Below are positions 4,053 to 60,975 of a DNA stretch of 64,000 nt, piece by piece. The stretch's first letter is position 1. Each line of letters begins with the position of its first letter. The translations under genes were made by a program, and so were the position numbers. The stretch is from Pyrinomonadaceae bacterium (GTDB lineage: Bacteria; Acidobacteriota; Blastocatellia; Pyrinomonadales; Pyrinomonadaceae). The notes beneath the pieces were generated by a model. It saw only the letters and a program-made list of their open reading frames with translations, ran no database searches and was not told where the DNA came from. The stretch covers positions 1,006,515-1,070,514 of the forward strand of contig JAJQRF010000001.1 of assembly GCA_021228405.1 (NCBI GenBank). Reading direction: 5' to 3'.

Positions 4053-4076
4053 ATCTTTGTAAAAATGTAAGTAAAA

Positions 4077-4167
4077 CTGCCCGCGAAAGATGCGAAAGGA
4101 CGCAAAAAGAGAAACTGATTTTCATTTTTTTATTTTTAGCGCATTTCGCATCTTTCGCGGGCAAATG
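4077..4167. repeat. palindromic MITE/REP-like element, family A (TTGCCCRCGAAA-N5-CRCGAAA ... TTTCGYG-N5-TTTCGYGGGCAA), probably a bidirectional terminator
   Basis: Inverted repeat CTGCCCGCGAAAGATGCGAAA ... TTTCGCATCTTTCGCGGGCA lying between the convergent eamA and trxC 3' ends. Copies also at about 39828, 42180, 55447, 57318 and 61430. Confidence 0.7.
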
Positions 4168-4180
4168 TCTTAAAACTTGC

Positions 4181-4636
4181 CTAAATAAACCTCTGCAAAC
4201 GCTGAGTCATCATTTCTTTTGAACCTGCGCCGACGATGCGGTCAACTTCTTTGCCGTCCTTAAAAATTATCAGCGTCGGAATGCTCTGCACCCGAAAAAG
4301 GCTTGACGTGGCAGGATTTTTGTCAACGTCGAGCTTTCCGATCTTCGCTTTTCCCGCCATTTCTTTTGCCAATACTTCGATAATCGGTGCGACAACGCGG
4401 CACGGACCGCACCAAGCCGCCCAAAAATCGACCAGAACCGGAAGTTTCGATTTGCCGACCTCATCTGCAAAATTGCCGTCGGTAATCACGACCGGCGCGG
4501 CGGAAACGGTCAGCGGCAATTTGCATTTACCGCAAACCGCCTGTTTATTCGCTTCAAACGAAACGCGATTCTTCGCACCGCAATTTCCGCAAGTAATAAT
4601 CTGTGTCGAATCATTCATAACTGCCCTCAAATTCAA
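4181..4636 (-). CDS. trxC: thioredoxin 2 (N-terminal zinc-finger thioredoxin)
   Basis: N-terminal CGNCGAKNRV...CGKCKLPL zinc-binding motif followed by the WCGPC active site, matching the E. coli Trx2 architecture. The true start may be the internal MNDSTQ. Confidence 0.85.
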   Translation of the reverse strand: MNLRAVMNDSTQIITCGNCGAKNRVSFEANKQAVCGKCKLPLTVSAAPVVITDGNFADEVGKSKLPVLVDFWAAWCGPCRVVAPIIEVLAKEMAGKAKIGKLDVDKNPATSSLFRVQSIPTLIIFKDGKEVDRIVGAGSKEMMTQRLQRFI

Positions 4637-4639
4637 TCA

Positions 4640-5057
4640 AAATCGTCTGCACAAATGCCGAAAACGAATCCGGCATCCACAAAACAATCTTAACGCATCG
4701 GCAAACCGTCTGCACCAATCGGCAAGTCATCTGCACTCATCGGCAAACCAACTTTACACATCGGCAAACGGTCTGAACGCATCGGCGAAGCATCTCGACA
4801 CGTCGGCAAACCGTCTTCACACGTCGGCAAACGATTTGAGCGCGTCGGCAAGTCATCTCAACACATCGGCAAATCATCTCAACACGTCGGCAAATCATCT
4901 GCATACATCGGCAACGAGTCTGCACACATCGGCAAGAAACCTGCACACGTCGGCAAAAACTTTTAACTCGTCGGTTGAAAGTCTGCACACATCGGTTAGA
5001 ACTTTATACAAACCCGCCGTTATTCTGCACACATCGGTTAAGAATATTCAAAAACAA
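4640..5057. repeat. tandem array 1: about 19 copies of a 21-bp unit C(A/G)TCGGCAA-N4/5-TCTGCACA
   Basis: Read directly. Units such as catcggcaaaccgtctgcaca and cgtcggcaagtcatctcaaca repeat head-to-tail. The 4-5 nt centre varies while the flanks are conserved. It sits immediately upstream of the trxC start. Confidence 0.85.
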
Positions 5058-5090
5058 AAGACGCAGGATTTTTAACTCGCTGCGTCTTTC
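5040..5090 (-). terminator. putative rho-independent terminator for the 5138..5452 gene
   Basis: 10-bp stem AAGACGCAG...CTGCGTCTT, followed on the minus strand by a T-rich tract (TTTGTTTTTG). Confidence 0.4.
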
Positions 5091-5137
5091 GCTTAATGCG
5101 ATTTAATCTGACTCAACTTATTCGGTCGCTAAAACGG

Positions 5138-5452
5138 CTAATTGTAAATTTCAAACAAGTCGCCTTCGCCCGAATACTCGCCGACCTGAACTTTTATCCA
5201 AATGCCTTGTTTGGTAATCCGTTTGTCGGTAACTATCGCCGAAAAAGGTTCTACCCGATCATCCCAATCACCAAAATCTTCTTCGGACACCATATTTCCT
5301 TCAAAAACGATCTGACGTTGTTTTCTGATTTCTGCCTTAACATAACTTAAATATTCCATCCTCAACGGATAAATAATTAGTTTTTGAGCAATCCTCGGAA
5401 ACAATTCGGAAAGCGCGTCTTCGTATAAATCAATTTTCTCACGATCGATCAA
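5138..5452 (-). CDS. hypothetical protein (AT-rich island gene)
   Basis: 104-aa ORF on the same strand as, and downstream of, alaS. Local GC is much lower than in neighbouring genes. No recognisable family. Confidence 0.4.
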   Translation of the reverse strand: MIDREKIDLYEDALSELFPRIAQKLIIYPLRMEYLSYVKAEIRKQRQIVFEGNMVSEEDFGDWDDRVEPFSAIVTDKRITKQGIWIKVQVGEYSGEGDLFEIYN

Positions 5453-5516
5453 CCGCTCGAAAATCTCGACAAATTGTTCTACTATTTCGTTGAAATTTAT
5501 TTACCTCAATATTTCT

Positions 5517-5957
5517 TCAATCACAGATAAAACCTAAATAAAGATTTTTTTCAATAGCTTGATTAAAGGAGTAAGTTAATTTCCTTATGGTTAAGGATGC
5601 GCTTTCGGAACTAACTAATGCTTGTAATTCTTCACATTCGACTAAAAACTCTTTTGCTTCGGATGGACTGAAAAAATAATCTTCATAGTCATAATAATCT
5701 TTTCCAAACCATTTAAAGCGAGGGAAATGCTCTTTGAATAAATTCAATCTATATTGAATCTTTTCCATAGAATCAACTTTTTTTGGATCGACGAAGATTT
5801 CTTTTGTTAATAACACGTCCGCTCGAATTGCATCAAAGTTTGAGCTATCAACGCTTACGGTTAAGTTCTCAACAAAATTATCGTCAAAAACGCTTGGTGA
5901 GGTTAGAAGCATCAAATCTAAAGTTCCGTTTCCATATTTACCAAATATATCTTGCAT
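5517..5957 (-). CDS. hypothetical protein (AT-rich island gene), start 2 nt after the alaS stop
   Basis: 146-aa ORF whose ATG follows the alaS TAA by 2 nt (TAATAATG). AT-rich, with no recognisable family. Confidence 0.4.
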   Translation of the reverse strand: MQDIFGKYGNGTLDLMLLTSPSVFDDNFVENLTVSVDSSNFDAIRADVLLTKEIFVDPKKVDSMEKIQYRLNLFKEHFPRFKWFGKDYYDYEDYFFSPSEAKEFLVECEELQALVSSESASLTIRKLTYSFNQAIEKNLYLGFICD

Positions 5958-5959
5958 TA

Positions 5960-8074
5960 TTAACTCAACATCTTTTCAATCACGCCGTAGCTTGCTGCGA
6001 GTGCGTCGTTTAATTTGCTTGCGTCGGTTCCGCCGCCTTCCGCCATATCGGGTTTGCCGCCGCCGCGCCCTGACACGATCGGGGCGATTTCCTGCACGAT
6101 CTTTCCGGCTTTTACTTTGTCGGTCAGATCGTCGGAAACGCGCACGATGAACGAAACTTTCTCGTCTTCGGTTCTTGCAAGAATCACCACGCCCGATTTC
6201 TGTTTCGACATCAGCGTGTCCGACAAATGCCGCATCCCGCCTTTGTCCAAACCGTCAACGATCTTCGCGATGACCTTCACGCCCGCAACGTCCTTCGCCT
6301 CGCCGCCGTTCGACGATGCGCCGCCGATCGCGCCCGTCGCGATCTTCATTTTCAGCTCGTCAATTTCCTTGCGCGTGCGTTTCAATTCTTCCTGCAATCT
6401 TTCGATCGCGTTCGGCAGATTGTCGCGCTGAGTTTTGAGAACGTTCAGCGAATCGGCGATCAACTTTTCGTCTTCGCGGAAACGCTCGAACGCATCGATG
6501 CCCGTAATTGCGCGGATTCGGCGCACGCCCGAAGCGACCGCTTCATCGCTCACGATCTTGAACGAACCGATGTCGCCCGTGGCGCGGACGTGCGTTCCGC
6601 CGCAGAGTTCCTTTGAAAAAGTGCCGCCGCCAATCGACAAAACGCGCACCTGCGAACCGTATTTTTCGCCGAAAAGTGCCATCGCGCCCGAACGCATCGC
6701 GTCTTCGATAGACATCAGATCGGTATTGACGGGATCGTTTTTCAAAATCTCGCGGTTGACCAAATCTTCGATTTCCTGCAATTCGGTTTCGGAAATCGGC
6801 TGATAATGCGTGAAATCGAAGCGCAGATAATTGGGCGCAACGACCGAACCGGCTTGTTTGACGTGCGTTCCGAGAACTTCCTTAAGCGCGGCGTGAACGA
6901 GATGCGTCGCCGTATGATTACGCCGTGTCGCATCGCGCTTGGCAACATCGACCGTCGCCGTCACCGTATCGCCGACACGAACCGCTCCCTTTTCAACCTT
7001 CGATTTATGCAGAACAATGCCCGCAATCGGTGCGAACGTATCGTAAACTTTAGTTTGCGAATTAGCATTATAAATCACGCCGACATCGCCGACCTGTCCG
7101 CCCGATTCGGCATAAAACGGCGTTTCATCCAAAACAATCAAACCCTCATCGCCTTCGCCGAGTTCTTCAACGCGGCTATCATTTTTCACCAGAGCGATAA
7201 CCTTTGCATCTTCAACCTCGGTTTTTTCGTAGCCGTGAAAATTCGAGCGAACGGACGTTCTTTCCAAAGCCGTGTAAATCGGATTGATTTTGTCGGCTTG
7301 TTTGGTTTTGCCGATTTCGCTTTGTTTTTGAAGATCAGATATTGCCTGGTCAAAATTCCGATCAAATGACTCTTCGGAAAATACTATTCCGTTCTGTTCT
7401 AATATAACTCTTATCAAATCTTTAGGTGTTCCGTATGTATCGTAAAGTTTCGCTAAATTATCTATTAAATTTAAGTGATTCAATGGCTCTGAAATGAGAT
7501 AAGCCCAAAAAGAACGAAAAGTTTCATTTATGGATTTATAATCATCTTCATAATTTGGAGAAAGGCTTTCATCTTCAAAGTATCTTCGCTCCCAAAAGCT
7601 TCGAAAGTCAGCAATGTCAGAAACATTTATTTTAGAAACATCGAAATTCTTAACTTCAAGAGATGGATAATGTTTATATAATTTATCTACTGCTTGATTT
7701 TGAGTTTCAGCAAAGAATTTATTTATTTCTTCATTAAGTCTCTTCAAACCGACCGTTAAAGTCGCGCCGAATCTTTCTTCTTCAAGACGCACCATTTTGC
7801 CGATGAAATCGCGTTGGATTTCGAGTTCGGGATAAGCGTCGTTCATTTGTTCGACGACGAAATCGCAGACTTTGTAGAAGAATAAATCCCTAAAACCGAG
7901 ATGCTCGCGCCCGTGATAGATGGCTCGGCGCATAATCTTCCGCAACACGTAATTTCTGCCTTCGTTGCCCGGCAAAATCCCGTCCGCAATTGCAAACGCG
8001 GTCGAACGCGCGTGATCGGCAATCACGCGGCAGGCAAATTGTTTCTGTTCATCAAAATTTTCGTAAACGCTCAT
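5960..8074 (-). CDS. alaS: alanine--tRNA ligase, C-terminal fragment (tRNA-recognition, editing and C-Ala domains); the gene is split by an IS200-like insertion
   Basis: 704 aa beginning MSVYENFDEQKQFACRVIADHARSTAFAIADG. It aligns to E. coli AlaRS from just upstream of RVIADH onward, and carries the editing-domain motifs HTATHLVHAAL and CGGTHV plus a C-terminal GGGKPDMAEGGG DHHA1-like region. Confidence 0.85.
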   Translation of the reverse strand: MSVYENFDEQKQFACRVIADHARSTAFAIADGILPGNEGRNYVLRKIMRRAIYHGREHLGFRDLFFYKVCDFVVEQMNDAYPELEIQRDFIGKMVRLEEERFGATLTVGLKRLNEEINKFFAETQNQAVDKLYKHYPSLEVKNFDVSKINVSDIADFRSFWERRYFEDESLSPNYEDDYKSINETFRSFWAYLISEPLNHLNLIDNLAKLYDTYGTPKDLIRVILEQNGIVFSEESFDRNFDQAISDLQKQSEIGKTKQADKINPIYTALERTSVRSNFHGYEKTEVEDAKVIALVKNDSRVEELGEGDEGLIVLDETPFYAESGGQVGDVGVIYNANSQTKVYDTFAPIAGIVLHKSKVEKGAVRVGDTVTATVDVAKRDATRRNHTATHLVHAALKEVLGTHVKQAGSVVAPNYLRFDFTHYQPISETELQEIEDLVNREILKNDPVNTDLMSIEDAMRSGAMALFGEKYGSQVRVLSIGGGTFSKELCGGTHVRATGDIGSFKIVSDEAVASGVRRIRAITGIDAFERFREDEKLIADSLNVLKTQRDNLPNAIERLQEELKRTRKEIDELKMKIATGAIGGASSNGGEAKDVAGVKVIAKIVDGLDKGGMRHLSDTLMSKQKSGVVILARTEDEKVSFIVRVSDDLTDKVKAGKIVQEIAPIVSGRGGGKPDMAEGGGTDASKLNDALAASYGVIEKMLS

Positions 8075-8192
8075 AAAAATCTATACATTCAATAAAATCA
8101 ATCGCCGGCGGCGATTCTTTCGTTAGCGGCAGGTTGGCAAACCTGCCGTCGAATAAGGTTAAATTAATTTACGCTGAAAGCGTTGCATTCAT

Positions 8193-8684
8193 TTAATCTA
8201 AAAAATATTTTTCGTCAAAATCCATTTCATACCGTTGTAAAAACTTCCGATATTCATCATCGAAACTTTCGGTTTTGTGATGTTCTTTTTGATTGGCAAT
8301 GTATTTTTTGACAATTTCAATTTGTAATTTACTCACTGAAAATGCCCCGAAACCGCTTTGCCATTGAAAACCGTCAAATACAGAGTCTTTTTGTTTTATC
8401 CACAAAGAACTTGCTCTCTTAACTTCTCGGATCAAATCGCTCAAAGCTATCTTTTTCGACTGCAAAATAAGTAAATGAACGTGATTTTCCGTTCCGTTTG
8501 CAGCTAACAATACTGATTCGTGTTTCCGCAAAATTCCGCCGATATATGCGAAAAGTTCTTTCTCAATTTCCGGCGCAATCAGGTTTTCACGATTTTTAGT
8601 TGAAAAAACAACGTGAATTATTATTTCGACTAAAGTTTGCGCCATAATTTGGATTCCTAAAATACAATACCTTCGGCATTGCAA
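8193..8684 (-). CDS. tnpA: IS200/IS605-family Y1 (HuH) transposase TnpA, or a RAYT-like relative
   Basis: 163 aa. HuH motif HVHLLI, and a C-terminal catalytic tyrosine in the context KKYIANQKEHH, which is typical of IS200 TnpA. Confidence 0.85.
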   Translation of the reverse strand: MQCRRYCILGIQIMAQTLVEIIIHVVFSTKNRENLIAPEIEKELFAYIGGILRKHESVLLAANGTENHVHLLILQSKKIALSDLIREVKRASSLWIKQKDSVFDGFQWQSGFGAFSVSKLQIEIVKKYIANQKEHHKTESFDDEYRKFLQRYEMDFDEKYFLD

Positions 8685-8747
8685 AAATAATTTTCAATTC
8701 GGCAGGTTTGACAACCTGCCGCTAACAAAAGTTTCGCCGTCGGCGAA

Positions 8748-8888
8748 TTTTTAACAATCAACATCCTCGAAACGTCGCTTTTTTGATGAATCAATCTCAG
8801 AAATCTCTTTCGCACTCATCAAATCGATGCTCAATTCCCAAAGCTGTTCCATCACTTTCAGACGATCCGTGATCGCTTCGGGCGACAT
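8748..8888 (-). CDS. small ORF (46 codons) inside the inserted element, starting 1 nt after the alaS-N stop
   Basis: MSPEAITDRLKVMEQLWELSIDLMSAKEISEIDSSKKRRFEDVDC, with the TGA-T-ATG arrangement. It is below the track's 60-aa cut-off. No family recognised; it may be non-coding leader. Confidence 0.2.
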
Positions 8889-8889
8889 A

Positions 8890-9723
8890 TCAACTTTCAT
8901 TTTTCTGTGATAATTGCGCCGAAAATTCGACGATCGGCATCAGCAAATCCGTGTCGTAATTCGTTTTTACGCCCTGCAGAACCGCCGTCATCCGCTCCAA
9001 GCCTGCGCCGGTATCCACCGACGGTGCGGGCAAAGGTTTGAGTTCAAAAACGCCTTTTTCCACTTCGCTGCGCTCGAACTGCATAAAGACGAGATTCCAG
9101 ATTTCCATCGTCGTGTCGCCTTCGCCGTTGACCCATTTCGGGTGATTTTTTTCGGGGTTGTCGGGTTCTTCGCCCATATAATAATGGATTTCCGAACACG
9201 GTCCGCACGGTCCCGTGTCGCCCATCTGCCAGAAGTTGTCCTTGCGTCCGAAACCTAAAATGCGTTCGGGTTTCGCGCCGACCTTTTCCCAGAGCGCACG
9301 CGCTTCGTCGTCGGCAGGAACTTCCGCGTCACCTTCAAAAACCGAAAACCACAGACGCGATTCTTCGAGTTTTAATTCATTGACGAGAAAATCCCAAGCA
9401 AAACGAATCGCGTCCTCCTTGAAATAATCGCCGAAACTGAAATTGCCGAGCATTTCAAAAAACGTGTGATGCCGGGCAGTTTTCCCGACTTCATCGAGAT
9501 CGTTGTGCTTTCCGCCCGCGCGGATACATTTTTGCGAACTGACGGCGCGGTTGTAATCGCGTTTTTCCACGCCCGTGAAAACATCCTTGAATTGATTCAT
9601 TCCCGCATTGGTAAAGAGCAAGGTCGGGTCGTTTGCGGGCAAAAGCGGTGATGAATGGACGATCTTGTGTCCGTTGCGTTCAAAATATTCTAAAAATTTA
9701 CGTCTGATTTCGTTTCCGGTCAT
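8890..9723 (-). CDS. alaS: alanine--tRNA ligase, N-terminal fragment (aminoacylation domain)
   Basis: 277 aa starting [22 protein letters not shown], with the class II motifs [23 protein letters not shown] and [13 protein letters not shown]. It ends at a TGA directly at the insertion junction. Confidence 0.85.
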
Positions 9724-20322: not shown

Positions 20323-20423
20323 TTATCCACAGATGAACACAGATACACACAGATTTTATTTGATTTAATCAATGAATTTATCTGATTTATCCGTGTTCAT
20401 CTGTGTGTATCTGTGGATAATTT
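20323..20423. repeat. palindromic MITE/REP-like element, family B (ATCCACAGATGAACACAGAT ... ATCTGTGTTCATCTGTGGAT)
   Basis: TTATCCACAGATGAACACAGATACACACAGAT ... ATCCGTGTTCATCTGTGTGTATCTGTGGATAA. Copies also at about 36262 and 51155. Confidence 0.7.
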
Positions 20424-39717: not shown

Positions 39718-39827
39718 TTAATGTAAAAATCTCCTTTATAAATAGTTACTCTTGATAAATTGTTAATATCTATCGAATTTTGACAAAAAATTAGGTCTTT
39801 GTCGAGTTTTGGAATGAAATAAGAAAA

Positions 39828-39956
39828 TTTGCCCACGAAATACACAAAAATCACGAAAAGAGAATTGTATAGGGTAAACAGTCAATCATTAATAGAAAAA
39901 GAAAAACAATTTACCATTAATTCTCTTTCGTTTCTTTCGTGTATTTCGTGGGCAAA
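39828..39956. repeat. family A palindromic element
   Basis: TTGCCCACGAAATACACAAAAATCACGAAAAG ... CTTTCGTTTCTTTCGTGTATTTCGTGGGCAA. Confidence 0.7.
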
Positions 39957-39958
39957 AC

Positions 39959-42179: not shown

Positions 42180-42264
42180 TTTGCCCGCGAAAAAACGCGA
42201 AACACGCAAAAAAACCAAAACCTTAAAAATATTTCGTGTCATTTCGCGTATTTCGCGGGCAAAT
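42180..42264. repeat. family A palindromic element (CGCGAAA variant), between the convergent MTHFS and mscL genes
   Basis: TTGCCCGCGAAAAAACGCGAAACACGC ... TTTCGTGTCATTTCGCGTATTTCGCGGGCAA. Confidence 0.7.
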
Positions 42265-42282
42265 AATCAATTAACAGCTTGC

Positions 42283-46495: not shown

Positions 46496-46780
46496 ATTTT
46501 TTGCACGTCAACCCGAATATTTTGCACGAGCGACTGTTTCTTTTGCACATCAACCCGAAACTTTTGCACGCGAACCCTGCACTTTTGCAAGCCAGCCCGA
46601 AACTTTTGCACGTCAACCCAAAACTTTTGCAAAGCAGTCCGAAACTTTCGCATTTCAACCCGAATGTTTTGCAAAGTCACCCGAAAGTTTTGCAAACCTA
46701 TCCGAAACTTTTGCAGACGAACCCGAAACTTTTGCAGGCGAACCCCAACGCTTTAGAGATTCGCCTGCAAATTTTTAACT
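46496..46780. repeat. tandem array 2: about 13 copies of a 21-bp unit TTTTGCA-N6-CCCGAAAC
   Basis: Read directly (ttttgcacgtcaacccgaaac, ttttgcaaagcagtccgaaac and similar). It is followed by short TTTTAAC repeats, and lies between the convergent sulfotransferase and serine hydrolase genes. Confidence 0.85.
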
Positions 46781-46809
46781 TTTAATTTTTACCTTTTAAC
46801 TTTCGCCCT

Positions 46810-51880: not shown

Positions 51881-52153
51881 GATTTCACGAAAAACGAAGC
51901 TGATTTAACGTCGATCGAACGGGGTTTCACGTTGTAATATTCGGATTTTACAATAATCGAACGGAATTTGACGCGGTCGTAACCGCATTTGACCGCGTCG
52001 CATCTGGATTTGACCGCGTCGTATTGGAATTTGACCGCGTCGTATTGGAATTTGACTGCGTCGCATCTGGATTTGACGCGGTCGTAACCGGATTTGACCG
52101 CGTCGTATCGAAATTTGACGCGGTCGTAACCGGATTTGACCGCGTCGCATTCG
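51881..52153. repeat. tandem array 3: about 13 copies of a 21-bp unit GRATTTGAC(C/G)GCG(G/T)TCGTANNN
   Basis: Read directly (ggatttgaccgcgtcgtattg, gaatttgacgcggtcgtaacc and similar). Each unit contains the palindrome GACCGCGTC. It lies in the divergent promoter region between DUF2721 and the esterase. Confidence 0.85.
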
Positions 52154-55446: not shown

Positions 55447-55534
55447 TTTGCCCACGAAATACACGAAAAGCACGAAAACAAAAACTTTCTGATTGGTTTT
55501 CCTTTTTCGTTTCTTTCGTGTATTTCGTGGGCAA
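55447..55534. repeat. family A palindromic element, between convergent genes
   Basis: TTGCCCACGAAATACACGAAAAGCACGAAAAC ... TTTCGTTTCTTTCGTGTATTTCGTGGGCAA. Confidence 0.7.
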
Positions 55535-55553
55535 ATCTTTTTCTTATCTTTAT

Positions 55554-60629: not shown

Positions 60630-60811
60630 ATCTTCCGATATTGATAAATCCGCGCCGAAATTTCAAATTACGTCTTCACAATCGCAAATCGGGACGACAA
60701 TTTCTTGAAACCGGAAGACAATTTTCACGATTTTGAACCGAAAAAAGTAAATTGTCAGCAGACATTTCGCGTTAGTCAGTTGACGGACGCAAAATGTCTG
60801 CTGACAATCCT

Positions 60812-60975
60812 CGTCTGTCAACCGACTAACTCCGTCCGTCAAACGACTAACTCACTCCGTCAACTGACATTTCTCACCAGTCAATTGACTAACTTCATCC
60901 GTCATTGACATTTTTCGTTCGTCAAACGACTAACTCCGTCCGTCAACTGACATTTTACGATTGTCATTTCTGTTC
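60812..60975. repeat. tandem array 4: about 8 copies of a 21-bp unit GTCAA(A/C)(C/T)GACTAACTCCGTCC, preceded by a 16-bp perfect inverted repeat
   Basis: Read directly. TTGTCAGCAGACATTT ... AAATGTCTGCTGACAA (about 60744-60810), then cgtcaaacgactaactccgtc-type units. Confidence 0.8.

Follow-up and report, generated by a model that had tools for sequence, protein, structure and literature searches.

An exact 21-bp tandem array with a conserved core between a terminator and a thioredoxin gene in a Pyrinomonadaceae bacterium

We analysed a stretch of 64,000 nucleotides (the window) from the genome of an uncultured soil Pyrinomonadaceae bacterium of the phylum Acidobacteriota (contig JAJQRF010000001.1, positions 1,006,515 to 1,070,514). 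The C-terminal AlaRS fragment encoded in the window shares 100% identity with a protein listed under this name from an NCBI metagenome-assembled genome. A tandem array of exactly 21-bp units, here called A1, lies upstream of the thioredoxin gene trx. A1 is a non-coding, old and degenerate minisatellite. It is neither a gene, nor a known RNA, nor a clustered regularly interspaced short palindromic repeat (CRISPR) array; it forms part of a strain-specific insertion, between a terminator and the ribosome-binding site of trx, and an array of the same family was found at a second, unrelated locus. We hold this description with high confidence. Coordinates are given in Table 1.

Tandem Repeats Finder (TRF) places A1 at positions 4682-5001 and scores it 207 at period 21 and 242 at period 63, whereas the maximum in twenty Markov-2 random windows (1.28 Mb) was 62. 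A1 thus is a tandem-repeat locus with head-to-tail copies far beyond chance. When the sequence is written in rows of 21, the register is unbroken over 4634-5054, without a single indel, and comprises 14 well-formed units flanked by three degenerate units at each end; the degeneracy is progressive toward both ends. The initial annotation had described about 19 units; the array is real, the count is now 20, and the 21-bp spacing is strictly kept. The TCGG core is identical in 14 of the 14 well-formed units and TCGGCA(A) is nearly so. The other conserved positions are T14, A17, C18 and C20. The motif proposed earlier, C(A/G)TCGGCAA-N4/5-TCTGCACA, agrees with the consensus ATCGGCAAACCATCTGCACAC, but about 13 of the 21 columns are well conserved (entropy at most 0.7 bit) rather than fifteen positions, and the variation that had been assigned to a central block is indeed observed in columns 8-11 but also in columns 0, 15, 16 and 19.

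The identity between units is flat with distance, going from 0.72 to 0.69. Identity between units lies at 63-72%; no run is near-perfect, and units 10-12 alone resemble each other closely. The 63-bp super-period is marginal (0.72, 0.71 and 0.73 at distances of one, two and three units). The flat profile indicates that the variable columns are saturated and the array is old; an identity of about 0.70 is, by our arithmetic, the level expected from fixed conserved columns and randomised variable ones. A 7-bp sub-period was not observed in A1 or in two of the other arrays of the window, A2 and A3 (lag-7 match 0.23, 0.17 and 0.12, at or below background); only the fourth array, A4, has a lag-7 match of 0.40.

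The translated A1 repeat was compared with 5.8 billion proteins and matched one open reading frame (ORF), P0121. This ORF comes from a metagenome contig of 1.5 kb (L211), in which about 12 units of the A1 family follow one another in perfect register. Over 212 bp, the two arrays share 74.5% identity (E 6e-35); they agree in which columns are invariant and have a common end-junction, ACAAACCCG, with ACAA/ACCCG in the same register. No unit-by-unit collinearity is left, and nothing else on L211 resembles the window. The L211 array follows a gene encoding a TonB C-terminal domain and precedes a convergent gene, which is not a promoter setting. The same contig contains two copies of a tRNA-like element of about 100 nt (324-425 and 1170-1280), one of them directly abutting the array; over its full length the element resembles the Y-RNA-like family YrlA (RF02553), but at 30 bits it stays below the gathering score of 69.

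Fitch parsimony on 23 units from A1 and L211 gives 69 changes in the 21 columns. The six core columns TCGGCA account for three of them, against 19.7 expected (P<5e-6), and the dispersion index of changes across columns is 2.5 (P 1.5e-4). The variable columns cluster, with lag-1 autocorrelation p values of 0.02, 0.02 and 0.07 for A1, A2 and A3, that is, significantly in A1 and A2. Bacterial non-coding DNA acquires roughly one indel per 10-20 substitutions. At this rate several indels would be expected in the A1 family, yet none disturbs the register in the 20 units of A1 and the 12 units of L211. Since the variable columns are saturated while the TCGGCA(A) core and the unit length are unchanged in 23 units from two genomes, we infer that purifying selection acts at the DNA level on the core, on a few other positions and on the exact unit length.

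One plus-strand frame is open across all of A1, and the same frame is open in L211. Public gene calls (window 4181-5075; L201 13000-13794) contain here a 264-aa product with a weak match to the coiled-coil protein HmpF and omit trx. This call is an annotation artefact caused by A1; the Trx protein is not on record by exact look-up because gene callers miss its gene. Translation of the frame into a coiled-coil-like protein with the heptad SANxLHT is the reading that the public annotation implies. It is consistent with the use of CTG, CTT, CTC, TTG, TTA, TTT and ATT at the hydrophobic position, with a pN/pS (nonsynonymous to synonymous differences) of 0.64-0.74 in this frame, the lowest on the plus strand, and with the existence of real small coiled-coil ORFs in related genomes. 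However, the frame lacks a start codon beyond trx, which means that the ORF has to extend antisense across the conserved thioredoxin gene, and the ORF ends differ between the two genomes. In the 23 pooled units of A1 and L211 the apparent serine codon is TCG in 24 of 24 cases and the apparent alanine codon is GCA in 22 of 24, so that third positions are fixed; substitutions at codon positions 1 and 3 are about equally frequent (26 and 27), and the cross-genome pN/pS in the open frame is 0.74. The column entropy is block-like, without 3-periodicity. By the Nei-Gojobori method, pN/pS between units ranges from 0.5 to 1.5 over the six frames of each of A1, A2 and A3, and the lowest values for A2 and A3 fall in stop-containing frames. 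The frames of A2 give proline or cysteine in most heptads, and A4 has stops in every frame. Besides P0121, nothing but spurious or low-complexity matches came from the protein searches: HMMER, run exhaustively on 1.84 billion representatives, produced 373 low-complexity matches with no shared non-repeat domain, many of them evidently eukaryotic or spurious, and the A3 ORF had no match in the protein database. We therefore consider a translated heptad protein extremely improbable, and the initial placing of the signal in the DNA rather than in a protein is borne out by the block-like conservation, the pN/pS near 1 in every frame, the fixed serine and alanine codons and the missing start.

The coiled-coil genes of related genomes (L023 6573-6977; L101 486-968 and 1667-2110) are genuine small protein genes holding 21-bp repeats ((DVAELKT)n, 98% identical units) or 33-bp repeats. 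Hence not every 21-bp array in Acidobacteriota is non-coding.

On the minus strand the order is alaS, two small ORFs, an intrinsic terminator, A1, the Shine-Dalgarno box GAGGG and the ATG of trx. The terminator hairpin proper occupies 5052-5094. A1 starts 3 bp past this hairpin and stops 6 bp short of GAGGG. The trx product scores 120.8 bits with TIGR01068 and 111 bits with the TrxC model, just below the cut-off of 125. No sigma-70-type promoter was found within A1 or between A1 and trx. Tandem -35-like TTGNCN hexamers and motifs of the extracytoplasmic function (ECF) sigma or SigR type were considered as promoters and rejected, as they have no correctly spaced -10 box. The earlier statement that the array fills the whole promoter region holds as geography, from terminator to ribosome-binding site, but no promoter was located; nor is a promoter-element reading general, as A2 and the L211 array sit between convergent genes.

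The gene order alaS-EamA-AsnC-aldehyde dehydrogenase is kept in three relatives (76-79% AlaRS identity). Two of them have alaS directly next to the EamA gene and lack the A1 segment, and the third carries two other genes at this place; the corresponding segment of the window (Table 1) is thus a strain-specific insertion. The best thioredoxin orthologues from metagenomes are only 53-57% identical, and none has an array upstream. The two small ORFs (5517-5957 and 5138-5452) have no family match. They lie in an AT-rich region (5100-5960, 36% GC against about 46%), and the first of them overlaps the alaS stop codon by 4 nt (ATGA); this region looks like acquired DNA appended to the alaS operon. 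On the other side of trx, a long hairpin between the convergent EamA and trx genes (4068-4172) is probably a bidirectional terminator. It yields spurious sub-threshold matches to plant and animal microRNA precursor models.

Three more 21-bp arrays, A2, A3 and A4, are present in the window. The consensus units of A1-A4, compared in any rotation and on either strand, are no more alike than shuffled ones (p 0.34-0.97), which upholds the initial description of four unrelated arrays in 64 kb. A2 is followed by (TTTTAAC)x4.4 at 46770-46803. A3 contains two unit sub-types; the 9-nt core of one, GACCGCGTC, is the exact reverse complement of that of the other, GACGCGGTC (GAC-N3-GTC), so adjacent units can pair; a single strand of A3 folds well (z -4.2 / -3.3). 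A radical-SAM gene neighbouring A3 suggested a ribosomally synthesised and post-translationally modified peptide; it matches no peptide-maturase model, and this idea was dropped. A4 lies between two minus-strand genes, upstream of a yjbQ-like gene, and its fold (z -8) is mostly due to the flanking perfect hairpin. No further array was found in about 11 kb of added flanking sequence, no 21-bp array of 60 bp or longer in 349 kb of control metagenome loci, and no non-coding 21-bp array in 68 kb from three relatives.

Table 1. Features of A1, its surroundings and the other arrays of the window
Feature	Position	Strand	Remarks
A1, complete tandem array	4634..5054		20 units of exactly 21 bp, no indel; TRF and rows of 21
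A1, well-formed units	4697..4990		14 units; consensus ATCGGCAAACCATCTGCACAC
A1, degenerate units on the trx side	4634..4696		three units, register kept; small hairpin inside (4655-4676)
A1, distal degenerate units	4991..5054		three units; contain the ACAA/ACCCG junction, which recurs toward the end of the L211 array with unchanged register
Intrinsic terminator (hairpin and U-run)	5046..5094	-	closes the upstream alaS-ORF146-ORF104 transcription unit; -23.2 kcal/mol, z -5.5
Thioredoxin gene trx	4181..4618	-	TrxC-like, N-terminal CxxC...CxxC zinc finger; ATG at 4618
Shine-Dalgarno box GAGGG	4624..4628	-	5 nt 5' of the trx ATG; read from the sequence
Accessory segment	4053..5959		two small ORFs, terminator, A1 and trx; synteny comparison
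Spurious ORF	4236..5075	+	279 aa, from the ORF list; antisense through trx, then through A1 as heptad SANxLHT
A2	46499..46771		about 12 units, consensus TTTTGCACGCCAACCCGAAAC; between convergent genes (sulfotransferase, beta-lactamase-domain protein)
A3	51961..52149		9 units, core ATTTGAC; between divergent genes
A4	60808..60970		about 8 units, one 1-bp deletion; stops in all six frames
Hairpin flanking A4	60751..60807		perfect 18-bp stem; loop carries one inverted A4 unit

Array loci in other genomes were fetched with the scan pattern TCGGCAA at 21-bp spacing and thus constitute a biased sample; by construction, this pattern also collects heptamer arrays (TCGGCAA)n. At least five further Acidobacteriota arrays from the DNA scan (L007, L101, L103, L108, L019) have an invariant core, a variable block and a perfect register. 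The array in L080 is similar but broken by an assembly gap lying inside it. No recurrent family of neighbouring genes was observed across six array loci. Two arrays (L019 172-497 and L108 4249-4536), on two contigs of one metagenome-assembled genome of Thermoanaerobaculia, belong to one 21-mer family with identical consensus in opposite orientation. This family has a strong higher-order repeat of 63/126 bp (94% identity at period 63 in L019). Viral contigs contain no A1, A2 or A3 units beyond one chance match.

The heptamer array (TCGGCAA)n was found in at least 20 fetched loci, in 7-19 copies and in intergenic positions (among them L004, L015-L018, L024, L033, L042, L044, L060, L062, L065, L067, L071, L073, L077, L095, L110 and L120). 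These loci come from Acidobacteriota, Planctomycetota, Myxococcota, Verrucomicrobiota, Chloroflexota, Bacteroidota, Spirochaetota and Proteobacteria, which refutes a distribution of TCGGCAA scan matches restricted to Acidobacteriota. Those inspected lie directly beside start or stop codons. The fetched loci also contain about twenty heptamer arrays of other sequence; where one heptamer array is present there are often several different ones, both within a locus (L042, L033, L015, L024) and within a genome. Derivation of A1-A3 from heptamers was rejected, as these arrays have no lag-7 signal. Heptameric simple sequence repeats (SSRs) are known to be over-represented in many bacteria without explanation, and a role of the polymerase active-site footprint has been hypothesised (PMC4692102). 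Intergenic TAACTGA heptamer repeats are likewise of unknown function; binding of S1, Csp or CsrA has been proposed for them (PMC4679880).

The strong constraint at the DNA level makes cooperative binding of a putative protein more plausible, and our tentative reading, possible rather than probable, is that A1 serves as a phased multi-site docking platform for a putative DNA-binding factor. With one core per 21.0 bp, or two helical turns, some 14-17 identical sites would point to the same side of the helix. A putative sequence-specific factor recognising the core would cover the DNA from the terminator to the trx start, roughly 400 bp, and the coated array might act as an insulator, silencer or architectural block. 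Units would be gained and lost only in whole steps of 21 bp or a multiple thereof, via slippage or unequal exchange, which would explain the perfect register. Several observations weigh against such a platform. Since the four arrays of the window have unrelated cores, a separate factor would be required for each of them, unless some of the arrays have no function. Elsewhere in the window, units were not found singly or in pairs. The arrays occupy convergent, divergent and tandem intergenic regions beside unrelated genes, with no common regulatory logic visible. A1 is missing at the orthologous site and 21-bp arrays are missing in the 68 kb from the nearest relatives, so any function would be dispensable. 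The cores are built of oligonucleotides common genome-wide and explained by lower-order composition. Finally, the two halves of the unit (ATCGGCAAAC and ATCTGCACAC), candidate half-sites at 10.5 bp, match at 10 of 21 positions, which is not significant (p 0.20). The main rival is a self-perpetuating or neutral product of slippage ('molecular drive') without function for the cell, and we regard it as a serious if somewhat doubtful candidate. In this view, replication slippage or unequal exchange would use the invariant 7-nt core as the microhomology for re-annealing of the nascent strand; a unit whose core is damaged would not be copied, and the period would stay exact because copying runs from core to core. 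Any bias toward multiples of 7 would stem from the polymerase, as hypothesised for heptanucleotide SSRs, whose over-representation and possible link to the polymerase footprint (PMC4692102) speak for this rival, as does the abundance and co-occurrence of heptamer arrays in the fetched genomes. It would also account for the absence of the arrays from relatives, their lineage specificity, their presence in any kind of intergenic region beside unrelated genes, their unrelated unit sequences made of genome-typical oligonucleotides, and their degenerate flanks; the Thermoanaerobaculia family, with two loci and its 63-bp higher-order repeat, points to active amplification. A1 itself, however, is nearly devoid of recent copying, and an intact core and register are unexpected for an inactive neutral array in a deletion-biased bacterial genome. 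Neutral slippage also sits poorly with the lack of a 7-bp sub-period in A1-A3, and leaves unexplained why all four founding duplications were 21 bp long and why a homologous array occurs at an unrelated locus in another genome.

Three further explanations address how A1 might act, or change, in its present place. As an RNA-level element, A1 would be part of a transcript, either a long trx 5' leader on the minus strand or, on the plus strand, an antisense or 3' RNA, and its repeated core would bind an RNA-binding protein or act as a sponge or standby site. We consider this reading improbable. The location between the terminator and the trx ribosome-binding site agrees with it, as a trx promoter upstream of 4700 would place A1 in the leader, and no sigma-70-like promoter is seen between A1 and trx; the TAACTGA heptamers upstream of start codons in Beggiatoaceae, with the proposed binding of S1, Csp or CsrA (PMC4679880), are a parallel. 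However, no part of the window matches Rfam at the gathering score and nothing matches over A1 at E<=1, the folding of A1 RNA is ordinary (z +0.5 / -2.3), and the orientation to neighbouring genes differs between A1 and L211 and among A1-A4. Intrinsic curvature, suggested in the initial annotation, would make A1 act by shape alone, with in-phase bends adding at 21 bp, as net bend is summed in phase by any 21-bp repeat. Prediction in 168-bp windows under three wedge models, which gives approximate values, places A3 and A4 in the most curved 0.5-3% under two models, but A1 at the unremarkable 9th, 37th and 17th percentiles and A2 at the 5th-21st; moreover, shape alone leaves the invariant core unexplained, and curvature is very unlikely to be what A1 is for. 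Equally unlikely is the suggested contingency or variable-number tandem repeat (VNTR) switch, in which changes of copy number would alter trx expression at high frequency. A tandem repeat directly upstream of a gene would suit such a switch, and whole-unit changes would keep the helical phase. Known contingency loci, however, use perfect short repeats, and the absence of any near-perfect run in A1, with unit identity about 70% and no rise for neighbours, is at odds with the near-perfect, high-frequency-slipping repeats that a contingency locus requires. This divergence of some 30% weighs more against high-frequency slippage than does the base-for-base identity of A1 in the window and in independent assemblies of two separate samples, which come from one population and are weak evidence. 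The next AlaRS match, only 80% identical, is the closest relative for a comparison of copy number. Sister arrays also lie between convergent genes.

Several known classes of elements were considered and rejected. A Rho utilisation site was set aside: the plus strand of A1, A2 and A4 is rich in C and poor in G, and the orientation to upstream genes fits only A2 and L211. The units of A1 are contiguous, with a variable block of only 4-6 nt, which differs from a CRISPR array. In a type III toxin-antitoxin locus (ToxI-like), the repeats would directly precede a gene for a ToxN/AbiQ-type endoribonuclease; the gene downstream of A1 encodes a thioredoxin, and A2 and L211 have no downstream gene in that orientation. 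Repetitive extragenic palindromes and bacterial interspersed mosaic elements (REP/BIME), which go with RAYT/IS200-type transposases, do not match, as A1 units are direct and non-palindromic; the hairpins flanking a tnpA gene of the window (8193-8684; GGCAGGTT...AACCTGCC) are unrelated. A heptanucleotide SSR is excluded by the lack of a 7-nt period in A1-A3. The direct-repeat spacing of 21 bp fits iterons or initiator repeats, but no rep gene was found within 10 kb on either side, and the genes near A1 are trx, the two small ORFs, alaS and EamA.

The closest parallels are bacterial intergenic minisatellites and VNTRs, such as the mycobacterial interspersed repetitive units (MIRU-VNTR). These are likewise head-to-tail, non-coding and intergenic, with units of tens of bp; they may be found upstream of genes, and whole units can be gained or lost. 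In contrast, A1 has old units diverged by about 30%, no length polymorphism was seen, an invariant core stands beside saturated positions, and one exact period is common to all four arrays within 64 kb. Intergenic heptanucleotide repeats (cyanobacterial short tandemly repeated repetitive sequences, TAACTGA in Beggiatoaceae, GGGAATC in Xanthomonas; PMC4679880, PMC4692102) are lineage-abundant and often abut start or stop codons. Moreover, 21 is three times 7, the A1 core TCGGCAA equals the (TCGGCAA)n unit, and A4 has a partial 7-bp sub-period. However, A1-A3 have no such sub-period; each of their 21-bp units combines a single core with variable sequence. Iterons, operators of the OmpR/PhoB or LytTR type and the SV40 21-bp repeats also have direct repeats about two turns apart, with a conserved core and a variable linker, a geometry used for cooperative binding on one face. 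These elements have 2-7 copies beside a cognate initiator, regulator or promoter, whereas A1 has 20 copies and no linked rep or regulator gene, and the present arrays occur between convergent genes as well. Plasmid partition centromeres (sopC with 12 x 43 bp, parC, the 20-bp repeats of pSK41) are long uninterrupted direct repeats overlapping a promoter region and coated by one protein, but A1 is chromosomal, no par genes are nearby, and several unrelated arrays lie within 64 kb. Eukaryotic satellite DNA resembles the arrays in its dispersed tandem families, degenerate edges and, at some loci (L019), higher-order repeats; the present arrays differ in being bacterial and only hundreds of bp long, with weak higher-order structure in A1.

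Two further features of the window were observed. The alaS gene is split at residue ~276 on the minus strand (8890-9723 and 5960-8074, within 5960-9723). The N-terminal fragment of 277 aa corresponds to residues 1-275 of an intact relative (87% identity), and the C-terminal fragment of 704 aa, with its own start codon, to residues 278-974 (79% identity). Between them lies a tnpA gene of the IS200/IS605 family (8193-8684), flanked by inverted hairpins (GGCAGGTTGTCAAACCTGCC / GGCAGGTTTGCCAACCTGCC). In one relative (L206) alaS is split at the same site, which there holds a non-homologous 150-aa ORF, and dozens of AlaRS fragments of about 700 aa exist in the database. Split AlaRS may thus be functional and widespread in Pyrinomonadaceae. 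The second feature is a family of long imperfect palindromes (39827-39957, 55449-55537, 42180-42268 and 20326-20419), exemplified by TTTGCCCACGAAATACACGAAAA ... TTTTCGTGTATTTCGTGGGCAAA, with arms consisting of triple repeats of 9-10 bp. Of the four placed relative to genes, three are at gene ends. They may be terminators or elements resembling miniature inverted-repeat transposable elements. One short-read contig (Logan) ends beside the palindrome at 55449-55537.

Bacterial minisatellites and heptamer SSRs are already known. For unrelated, exactly 21-bp core-plus-linker arrays under DNA-level constraint in Acidobacteriota, no prior description was found in the incomplete literature searched, nor was anything on 21-bp arrays in Acidobacteria. 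The arrays have practical consequences for annotation. They mislead gene callers, as the 264-aa 'HmpF-like' ORF is called and the real thioredoxin is missed, and they can mislead protein clustering, since the translated repeat matches 373 mostly low-complexity proteins. If the arrays are selfish, they would offer a clear example in nature of slippage anchored at a core and proceeding by a fixed step, which bears on the unexplained excess of bacterial repeats with a 7-nt period. A bolder and rather unlikely proposal is that some Acidobacteriota possess a class of phase-locked non-coding satellites, comprising many unrelated families whose units measure exactly 21 bp (two helical turns, three heptamers), with a selected core of about 7 nt and a free linker, dispersed within and between genomes. 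They would be sequence-specific nucleoprotein scaffolds (insulators or nucleoid-organising sites), each read by its own member of a paralogous family of DNA-binding proteins, and, if this is true, they would be a bacterial counterpart of satellite chromatin. If the constraint reflects function, the arrays would represent a new type of bacterial cis-element, and uncultured soil Acidobacteriota would organise their intergenic DNA in a way unlike that of model bacteria.

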